From the NCBI GenBank assembly GCA_016787645.1, contig JAEUUF010000020.1, positions 138,062 to 202,061 on the forward strand: DNA of 64,000 nucleotides. The letters are read 5' to 3'. Shown one piece after another: positions 45,617 through 45,670 of the stretch. Each line of letters begins with the position of its first letter. Position 1 is the first letter of the stretch. This stretch comes from Cyclobacteriaceae bacterium (GTDB lineage Bacteria > Bacteroidota > Bacteroidia > Cytophagales > Cyclobacteriaceae). Under the pieces are notes generated by a model. It saw only the letters and a program-made list of their open reading frames with translations, searched no databases and had not been told where the DNA came from. Both the position numbers and the translations under genes were made by a program.

Positions 45617-45632
45617 TGTTTCACGTGGAACA
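45617..45632. promoter_or_regulatory. parS: parS centromere-like site 1
   Basis: TGTTTCACGTGGAACA; the reverse complement TGTTCCACGTGAAACA is a full match to the TGTTNCACGTGAAACA consensus. Confidence 0.88.
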
Positions 45633-45654
45633 CCAGGATTCGCTAATCCGGGAT

Positions 45655-45670
45655 TGTTCCACGTGGAACT
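45655..45670. promoter_or_regulatory. parS: parS centromere-like site 2
   Basis: TGTTCCACGTGGAACT, a near-perfect palindrome; the deviating last base is part of the ybeY stop codon. Confidence 0.82.

Follow-up and report, generated by a model that had tools for sequence, protein, structure and literature searches.

Two parS palindromes at the ybeY-mnmG junction, very probably the segregation handle of a Cytophagales chromosome

Genes and features of the locus

The window (the whole stretch of DNA that was analysed, 64,000 nucleotides) corresponds to C26:138062-202061 of a genome assembly that comprises 4,016,998 bp in 28 contigs and is 99.8% complete. On the minus strand the gene order is DUF4175, HATPase_c_2, ybeY, mnmG, MTase, Big_5, a gap and TPR, and the features to which we refer are the following.

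46495-49848, minus strand: DUF4175 protein
46081-46488, minus strand: HATPase_c_2 protein, RsbW-like
45669-46091, minus strand: ybeY, rRNA maturation RNase (TIGR00043, 90.5 bits with a cut-off of 45; Pfam YbeY, 6e-26)
45678-45685, minus strand: candidate Bacteroidota sigma-A -7 box TATCTTTG, within the final codons of ybeY and 7 nt upstream of parS-2
45655-45670, no strand assigned: parS-2, TGTTCCACGTGGAACT, 15/16 to consensus
45633-45654, no strand assigned: spacer of 22 bp, taken as filler, containing an inverted repeat that is weak (7/8)
45617-45632, no strand assigned: parS-1, TGTTTCACGTGGAACA, 16/16 to consensus, promoter-distal and mnmG-proximal
43740-45605, minus strand: mnmG from its conserved start (longest ORF 43740-45617; TIGR00136, 840 bits with a cut-off of 525; Pfam GIDA, 3.8e-165)
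42853-43740, minus strand: class I methyltransferase (MTase)
41228-42856, minus strand: Big_5 Ig-like protein
40916-41228, no strand assigned: candidate oriC at the Big_5/TPR gap, with DnaA boxes, 4.4 kb from the parS pair
38947-40974, minus strand: TPR protein
61623-61638, no strand assigned: parS-like 16-mer TGTTTCACCTGAAACA, in a coding region, with a broken central CACGTG

The two 16-mers that a preceding sequence-only reading had located at 45617-45632 and 45655-45670 are correct in coordinates, in sequence and in their start-to-start distance of 38 bp, and their assignment to the ParB/Spo0J consensus is borne out by the number of matching positions. Compared as 16-mers with TGTTNCACGTGNAACA, the first has no mismatch and the second has one, and both are 16-bp palindromes of the form tGTTNCACGTGNAACa with an intact CACGTG core. 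The sole mismatch of parS-2 falls on its outermost base, and this base belongs to the TAG with which ybeY ends. As had been claimed, this site shares bases with the stop codon, namely its first two bases on the minus strand, which are the AG of the TAG at 45669-45671. In many relatives the distal parS likewise starts inside the ybeY stop codon, with the A or the AG of its TAA or TAG (taA/GTT or tAG/TT).

From the ybeY stop codon to the first in-frame ATG of mnmG there are 51 bp, and this stretch contains both parS sites. Whether parS-1 covers the translation start of mnmG, as had been proposed, depends on the ATG considered: it touches the first ATG of the longest ORF (45617), but the conserved ATG at 45605 (MFPEYDVIVVG...) is uncovered. 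The alignments to relatives begin at residue 5 of the long ORF, and 'atgtttcca' stands at the mnmG start in most of 80 loci. Since the conserved start is ATG 45605, parS-1, which occupies positions -27 to -12 relative to it, lies in the mnmG leader and off the start codon. MnmG is an enzyme of tRNA U34 carboxymethylaminomethyl synthesis. Its closest relatives, with 74-88% identity, are found in MAGs labelled Ohtaekwangia, Chryseolinea or 'Cyclobacteriaceae bacterium' and in Ohtaekwangia koreensis, which assigns the genome to Cytophagales within the Bacteroidota, and the sequencing runs that carry the locus are DNA metagenomes from bioreactors and wastewater.

Occurrence of the motif in the genome

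In the window, three sites with up to two mismatches are observed, versus 0.18 in dinucleotide shuffles. The scan of all 4,016,998 bp returned one perfect parS site, three sites with up to one mismatch, every one of them inside the window, and 14 sites with up to two mismatches, which are scattered and form no other cluster; the reversed-pattern control gives one match per genome. The pair at the ybeY-mnmG junction is the only near-consensus parS with an intact CACGTG core in the whole genome. The motif is therefore not spread around the chromosome, a possibility that the earlier reading had raised against itself. The 16-mer at 61623 was considered as a third parS and rejected as probably due to chance, because its core is broken and because the control yields one match per genome.

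Conservation of the sites in relatives

The sites keep their syntenic position in relatives whatever non-coding sequence flanks them. Among 80 mnmG loci of Cytophagales, about 70 have two or three parS sites immediately 5′ of mnmG, with the proximal site at the same offset (-16 to -30), and the order conserved in Cytophagales is DUF4175, HATPase_c_2, ybeY, parS, mnmG, MTase, Big_5, DnaA boxes, TPR. In a sample of the phylum Bacteroidota, exact-core pairs 33-63 bp apart are present in 81/401 genomes versus 3/401 in the reversed control. Among the 30 loci fetched from this sample, one of which belongs to the present genome, mnmG is located beside the sites in 28 and ybeY as well in 23, and the number of parS sites per locus ranges from two to seven. 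The layout ybeY-[parS x2-7]-mnmG thus recurs in Cytophagales and in other Bacteroidia. When whole genomes of five relatives were scanned (two labelled as complete chromosomes and two near-complete), the sole exact-core parS was this pair, or in one of them a trio, in all five. Ohtaekwangia koreensis DSM 25262 has three parS sites at the locus.

In Cytophagales (loci L035-L114) the start-to-start spacings are never shorter than 33 bp and form three groups: 32 pairs have 36-39 bp, about 23 have 44-49 bp and about 9 have 53-60 bp. Strict helical phasing of the sites was considered and rejected, as the spacings are continuous from 33 to more than 60 bp across the phylum. The minimum may reflect a steric limit for two ParB dimers, or the clustering may reflect shared ancestry.

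Two variants of the arrangement were observed. In a Flavobacteriaceae-like family (f19, L135-L144) three to seven parS sites are located between ybeY and mnmG, and the first of these is inside the coding tail of ybeY (...KEEEKIKM-FHVE...). The closest relatives (L035-L043, L073) have a degenerate third parS, TGTTTCATGTGGAACA, with the core CATGTG, about +1959 from the mnmG ATG; it falls within the methyltransferase gene that follows mnmG, in its 5′ part. The corresponding sequence in this genome, 43632-43647, has decayed and has 4 mismatches.

Position relative to the replication origin

An internal V-shaped minimum of the cumulative GC skew was seen in only one of the contigs above 50 kb, C26, where it is located at 180-190 kb; the parS pair is at 183.7 kb. 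The Big_5/TPR gap (40974-41228, 254 bp) has perfect DnaA boxes at 40976-40984 (minus strand) and 41214-41222 (plus strand), and an AT-rich tract extends over 40900-40970. In 81 oriented mnmG loci, 350 DnaA boxes with up to one mismatch fall at +4200 to +5000 from the ATG, versus 0-17 per 200-nt bin elsewhere, and the syntenic gap has about 4.5 boxes per locus. Proximity to the origin, which had been suggested from the window alone, is confirmed in that the pair is located in the single skew minimum and near a conserved DnaA-box cluster. In the relative CP058703, whose pair is at 2.570 Mb, twenty 20-kb samples show two turns of the skew, one from negative to positive between 2.36 and 2.77 Mb and one from positive to negative near 0.45-0.85 Mb. 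This pattern places the parB of CP058703 (0.03 Mb) in the terminus-proximal part of its replichore.

The run of genes from DUF4175 to Big_5 (41228-49848, minus strand) is transcribed towards the candidate oriC and is head-on to a fork leaving that way. In relatives of the Ohtaekwangia/Chryseolinea type, three direct repeats that resemble DnaA boxes, of the type TGTGGA(A/T), are located between the two parS sites (e.g. aaaTGTGGAAATGTGGATGAATTTTGTGGGCAA). This second DnaA-box cluster inside the centromere, at about -100 to -45 from the mnmG ATG, is seen at L045, L046, L048, L055, L059, L066, L072 and L077, the last of which has a perfect TGTGGATAA among its repeats, and it is absent from this genome.

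ParA, ParB, SMC and dnaA genes

The window contains neither parA nor parB, as had been stated; parAB is located on contig C1. The genome has a single ParB_N gene (C1:369 kb, E 1.1e-35), and the existence of a chromosomal ParB, on which the interpretation of the sites depends, is thereby confirmed: the protein is a canonical Spo0J-type ParB with parA directly upstream. It consists of 291 aa with GERRFQAARRAG, ENIQRENL and an HTH, and scores 184 bits on TIGR00180 with a cut-off of 58. Alignments that span the whole protein were obtained with Thermus Spo0J (1VZ0, 2.8e-51), with the Caulobacter ParB-parS complex (6T1F, 9.5e-49) and with B. subtilis ParB-CDP (6SDK, 2e-48); in these structure alignments it carries the CTP-binding motif GERRfqAA, and its C-terminus matches 5NOC. 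The ParA/Soj ORF (257 aa) overlaps parB and has the deviant Walker A motif KGGVGKTT; in NCBIfam it falls into the ParA/MinD superfamily, with matches only below equivalog cut-offs. At C1:313 kb a frame of 1182 aa contains an SMC hinge domain. No site with up to two mismatches was found within 60 kb of C1:369 kb, i.e. there is no degenerate parS near parB.

The parS pair (C26), parAB (C1) and dnaA (C25:37.6 kb) are located on three different contigs. Because the assembly consists of 28 contigs, their distances in this genome are inferred from relatives. In four relatives that have parS and parB on one record (CP058703, CP121337, OZ271834 and CBDETD010000002; G041-G044) the distance between parS and parB is 1.72/4.26, 2.12/4.87, 2.24/5.30 and 2.35/5.87 Mb, corresponding to 40-44% of the circle, and in the same four the distance between parS and dnaA is 12-32% of the chromosome.

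Two further observations concern these contigs and records. The skew maximum of C1, which is probably the terminus, is located around the first 10-20 kb of the contig, and parB is about 350 kb from it. In CP058703 (G041) seven identical weak Bac_DnaA-like matches are distributed around the chromosome in frames of 194-263 aa (23.7-23.8 bits; E 1.1e-4 for six and 1.2e-4 for the seventh); these probably represent helper ATPases, of the IS21-type IstB kind, from an insertion sequence present in several copies.

Spacer and RNA fold

The repeat in the spacer, CCAGGATT-CGCT-AATCCGGG, does pair at 7/8 positions, but the hairpin that had been read from it is not significant and not conserved. On its own it folds with an MFE of -5.5 kcal/mol (z -1.43, p about 0.1), and about 10% of shuffles equal this value. 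Comparison with the ybeY-mnmG spacers of relatives, which had been proposed as a check, went against the hairpin as well: 67 spacers are unstructured (mean z -0.22, median +0.19), share no sequence and vary in length, from 17 to 44 nt or more. On the z of this spacer and the mean z of its counterparts, the hairpin was rejected as a functional element. An intrinsic-terminator scan of 45300-46600 detected no terminator-like site in the spacer and no U-tract after the hairpin, and a sigma-70 promoter scan of the same region, which is ill-suited to Bacteroidota promoters, detected none in the spacer. A structured spacer or intrinsic terminator was likewise rejected, on the lack of a terminator-like site in the spacer, on the z of the hairpin and on the unstructured spacers of relatives.

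The whole region is different in this respect. The fold of the minus-strand RNA 45596-45685 has an energy of -34.1 kcal/mol (z -5.4), so that the description of the region as one large palindrome is real as far as it goes; but the strong fold is the product of two near-identical palindromes located side by side and pairing with each other.

A candidate promoter abutting the distal site

The -7 element of Bacteroidota sigma-A is TAnnTTTG or TAHHTTTG in the register -12 to -5 (PMC6847099, PMC9723704). The candidate box TATCTTTG fits TAHHTTTG and overlaps coding sequence, where it encodes Leu-Ser-Leu in the tail of YbeY. The exact box is located 5-15 nt upstream of the distal parS in 56/73 Cytophagales loci, and at -150 to -51 there are 55 matches to TAnnTTTG over 81 loci, versus 0-6 per 50-nt bin elsewhere. 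Conservation reaches 94-97% at the two free positions of the motif, compared with 42-69% at neighbouring third-codon positions, which suggests that the box is constrained at the level of DNA; protein constraint also contributes to its conservation through the coding of Leu-Ser-Leu. No clear -33 element (TTTG) was found upstream of the box at this locus, and the box is absent from Flavobacteriaceae-like loci.

If the candidate box is a promoter, transcription is predicted to start near 45673, which would place parS-2 at +4 to +19, parS-1 at +42 to +57 and the mnmG ATG at +69. The predicted mnmG leader would then be 68 nt long and contain both parS sites, and ParB nucleated at them would hold the classical position of a repressor or roadblock.

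Interpretation of the sites and alternative explanations

Judged from sequence, this Cytophagales (Bacteroidota) bacterium with high probability has a single chromosomal parS centromere, namely the two palindromes. This interpretation is supported because five lines of evidence agree with it: the identity of the sites as parS, their uniqueness in the genome, their position at the origin, the presence of ParAB and SMC genes, and a layout that is conserved in relatives. The pair very probably represents a handle for chromosome segregation. The element itself is real and conserved widely, and its kind is ordinary and well known.

Sequences of this sort could be thought to match parS by chance, or to be copies of a dispersed REP-like repeat, and nothing beyond their palindromic nature favours that explanation. 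The genome has only two copies, both at the ybeY-mnmG locus, and they keep a syntenic position in hundreds of genomes; because the counts in the shuffles, the reversed-pattern controls (both near zero) and the genome scan exclude chance, this explanation is left with a negligible probability. The palindromes could also act mainly at the level of RNA, where the long hairpin in the ybeY-mnmG transcript would control processing, stability or translation of mnmG and the likeness to parS would be secondary. The strength of the fold of RNA 45596-45685 and the nearly fixed distance between the proximal site and the mnmG ATG in relatives agree with such a role, as does the response of translation initiation in Bacteroidota to leader structure (PMC6847099). 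However, it is the exact 16-mer that is conserved and not the pairing, no covariation is seen, and the same sequence is found phylum-wide together with unrelated spacers. The number of sites varies from two to seven and their spacing from 33 to more than 60 bp, the hairpin is not followed by a U-tract, and in other phyla the 16-mer is a ParB site in unrelated contexts. An RNA-level role is therefore very improbable as the main one, since sequence rather than pairing is conserved and since copy number and spacing vary, and any effect on RNA can only be a by-product added to the role of the DNA.

The position of the distal site, which abuts a conserved candidate -7 box in the manner of a classical repressor site, raises the question of whether the sites are operators, either for a dedicated transcription factor or for a ParB that chiefly represses mnmG in the manner of KorB or Noc and does not serve a centromere. 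ParB-family proteins such as KorB are CTP-dependent repressors, and 8QA8 is among the structure matches to the ParB of this genome. In P. aeruginosa, ParB is reported to repress promoters beside parS3 and parS4 (PMC5521831). Against this, the only ParB_N protein of the genome is a full-length Spo0J-type protein encoded beside parA, the sites are the sole parS in the genome and located exactly at the skew minimum, and the linkage between parS and mnmG is kept in lineages that do not have the -7 box; moreover, to regulate one tRNA-modification gene it would not be necessary for every lineage to have two to seven sites at its origin. Since the genome has a canonical ParAB-SMC set and a unique site located at the origin, there is only a slim chance that the sites are operators in place of a centromere.

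Proposed function of the parS pair

Returning to the centromere, the steps of its action can be deduced from ParABS, since the mechanism of that system is established. CTP-bound dimers of the single genomic ParB would nucleate on each parS site and close into clamps, which would slide over several kb of flanking DNA, including the candidate oriC 4.4 kb away. ParA-ATP would move the ParB-parS complex, so that newly replicated origins are separated, and the same complex would be the loading site for SMC, from which the two chromosome arms would be zipped starting at ybeY-mnmG. Having two adjacent parS sites would provide redundancy and a higher loading rate, and the spacer would have no function of its own. 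The nucleation complex would cover approximately +4 to +57 of the predicted mnmG leader, and it may, speculatively, dampen or roadblock the transcription of mnmG.

A stronger form of this last idea seems rather unlikely. According to it, the sole centromere of Cytophagales is written into the first ~60 nt of the mnmG transcript, just after a conserved promoter box set in the stop region of ybeY, and ParB occupancy, which would vary with replication and CTP status, gates the transcription or translation of MnmG, or else transcription clears the clamps, while parAB is located near the terminus and is uncoupled. If this were true, one 54-bp element would tie chromosome segregation to translational fidelity, and it would be explained why parS stays beside mnmG across Bacteroidota. 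The candidate promoter abutting the distal parS bears on whether ParB loading affects a housekeeping gene.

The kind of element is textbook, and knowledge of how ParABS works is unchanged. A rule is indicated, with one parS locus beside mnmG in all five relatives and parAB approximately 40% of the chromosome away in the four where this could be measured. The pair provides a precise marker of centromere and origin, accessible to experiment, for an uncultured wastewater lineage of Cytophagales, and for Bacteroidota MAGs generally. In Bacteroidota dnaA is a misleading marker of the origin, and the ybeY-parS-mnmG junction a reliable one.

Comparison with known systems

The origin-proximal parS sites of B. 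subtilis, Caulobacter crescentus and Thermus have the identical 16-bp consensus and are located, as here, within a few kb of the origin. The ParABS systems of these models likewise have a cognate ParB with the GERRxRA CTP motif and an HTH, together with ParA and SMC as partners. B. subtilis has 8-10 dispersed parS sites, whereas the two sites of this genome form its only locus. parAB is close to the origin in most model species, which also have a parS in or near parB. Here parAB and the parS pair are on different contigs, and the two are separated by 40-44% of the chromosome in complete relatives.

Within the phylum, the parS cluster of Bacteroides caecimuris is located at the skew-defined origin and away from dnaA, as here, and the Hi-C data place it at the apex of the arm-alignment diagonal (PMC10197239). 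The authors report no known condensin homologue in the two Bacteroidetes of that study, whereas this Cytophagales genome encodes an SMC with a hinge domain; the searched portion of its text does not mention the ybeY-mnmG position. In Flavobacteriaceae, oriC was assigned by Ori-Finder and GC skew to the neighbourhood of mnmG and not to that of dnaA (Mariniflexile litorale, PMC11278836; Algorimicrobium, PMC12843772), in agreement with the present genome. These two papers do not mention parS (the only word starting with 'pars' is 'parsimony'). Compared with those predictions, the DnaA-box cluster is here 4.4 kb downstream of the mnmG start and parS is upstream. Neither this instance nor a phylum-wide ybeY-parS-mnmG rule is stated in the literature searched, which did not extend to the 2007 parS census.

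Pseudomonas aeruginosa offers a likeness in position, as its parS1-4 form a tight cluster beside oriC and mnmG/gidA (PMC4368675, PMC5521831, PMC13438810). There, one parS suffices, so that multiplicity represents redundancy, and ParB beside promoters can repress them. The surroundings differ. In Pseudomonas mnmG heads a gidAB-parAB operon, so that parAB is adjacent, and there are many half-sites and secondary parS sites, whereas here parAB is distant and the genes that come after mnmG encode a methyltransferase and an Ig-like lipoprotein.
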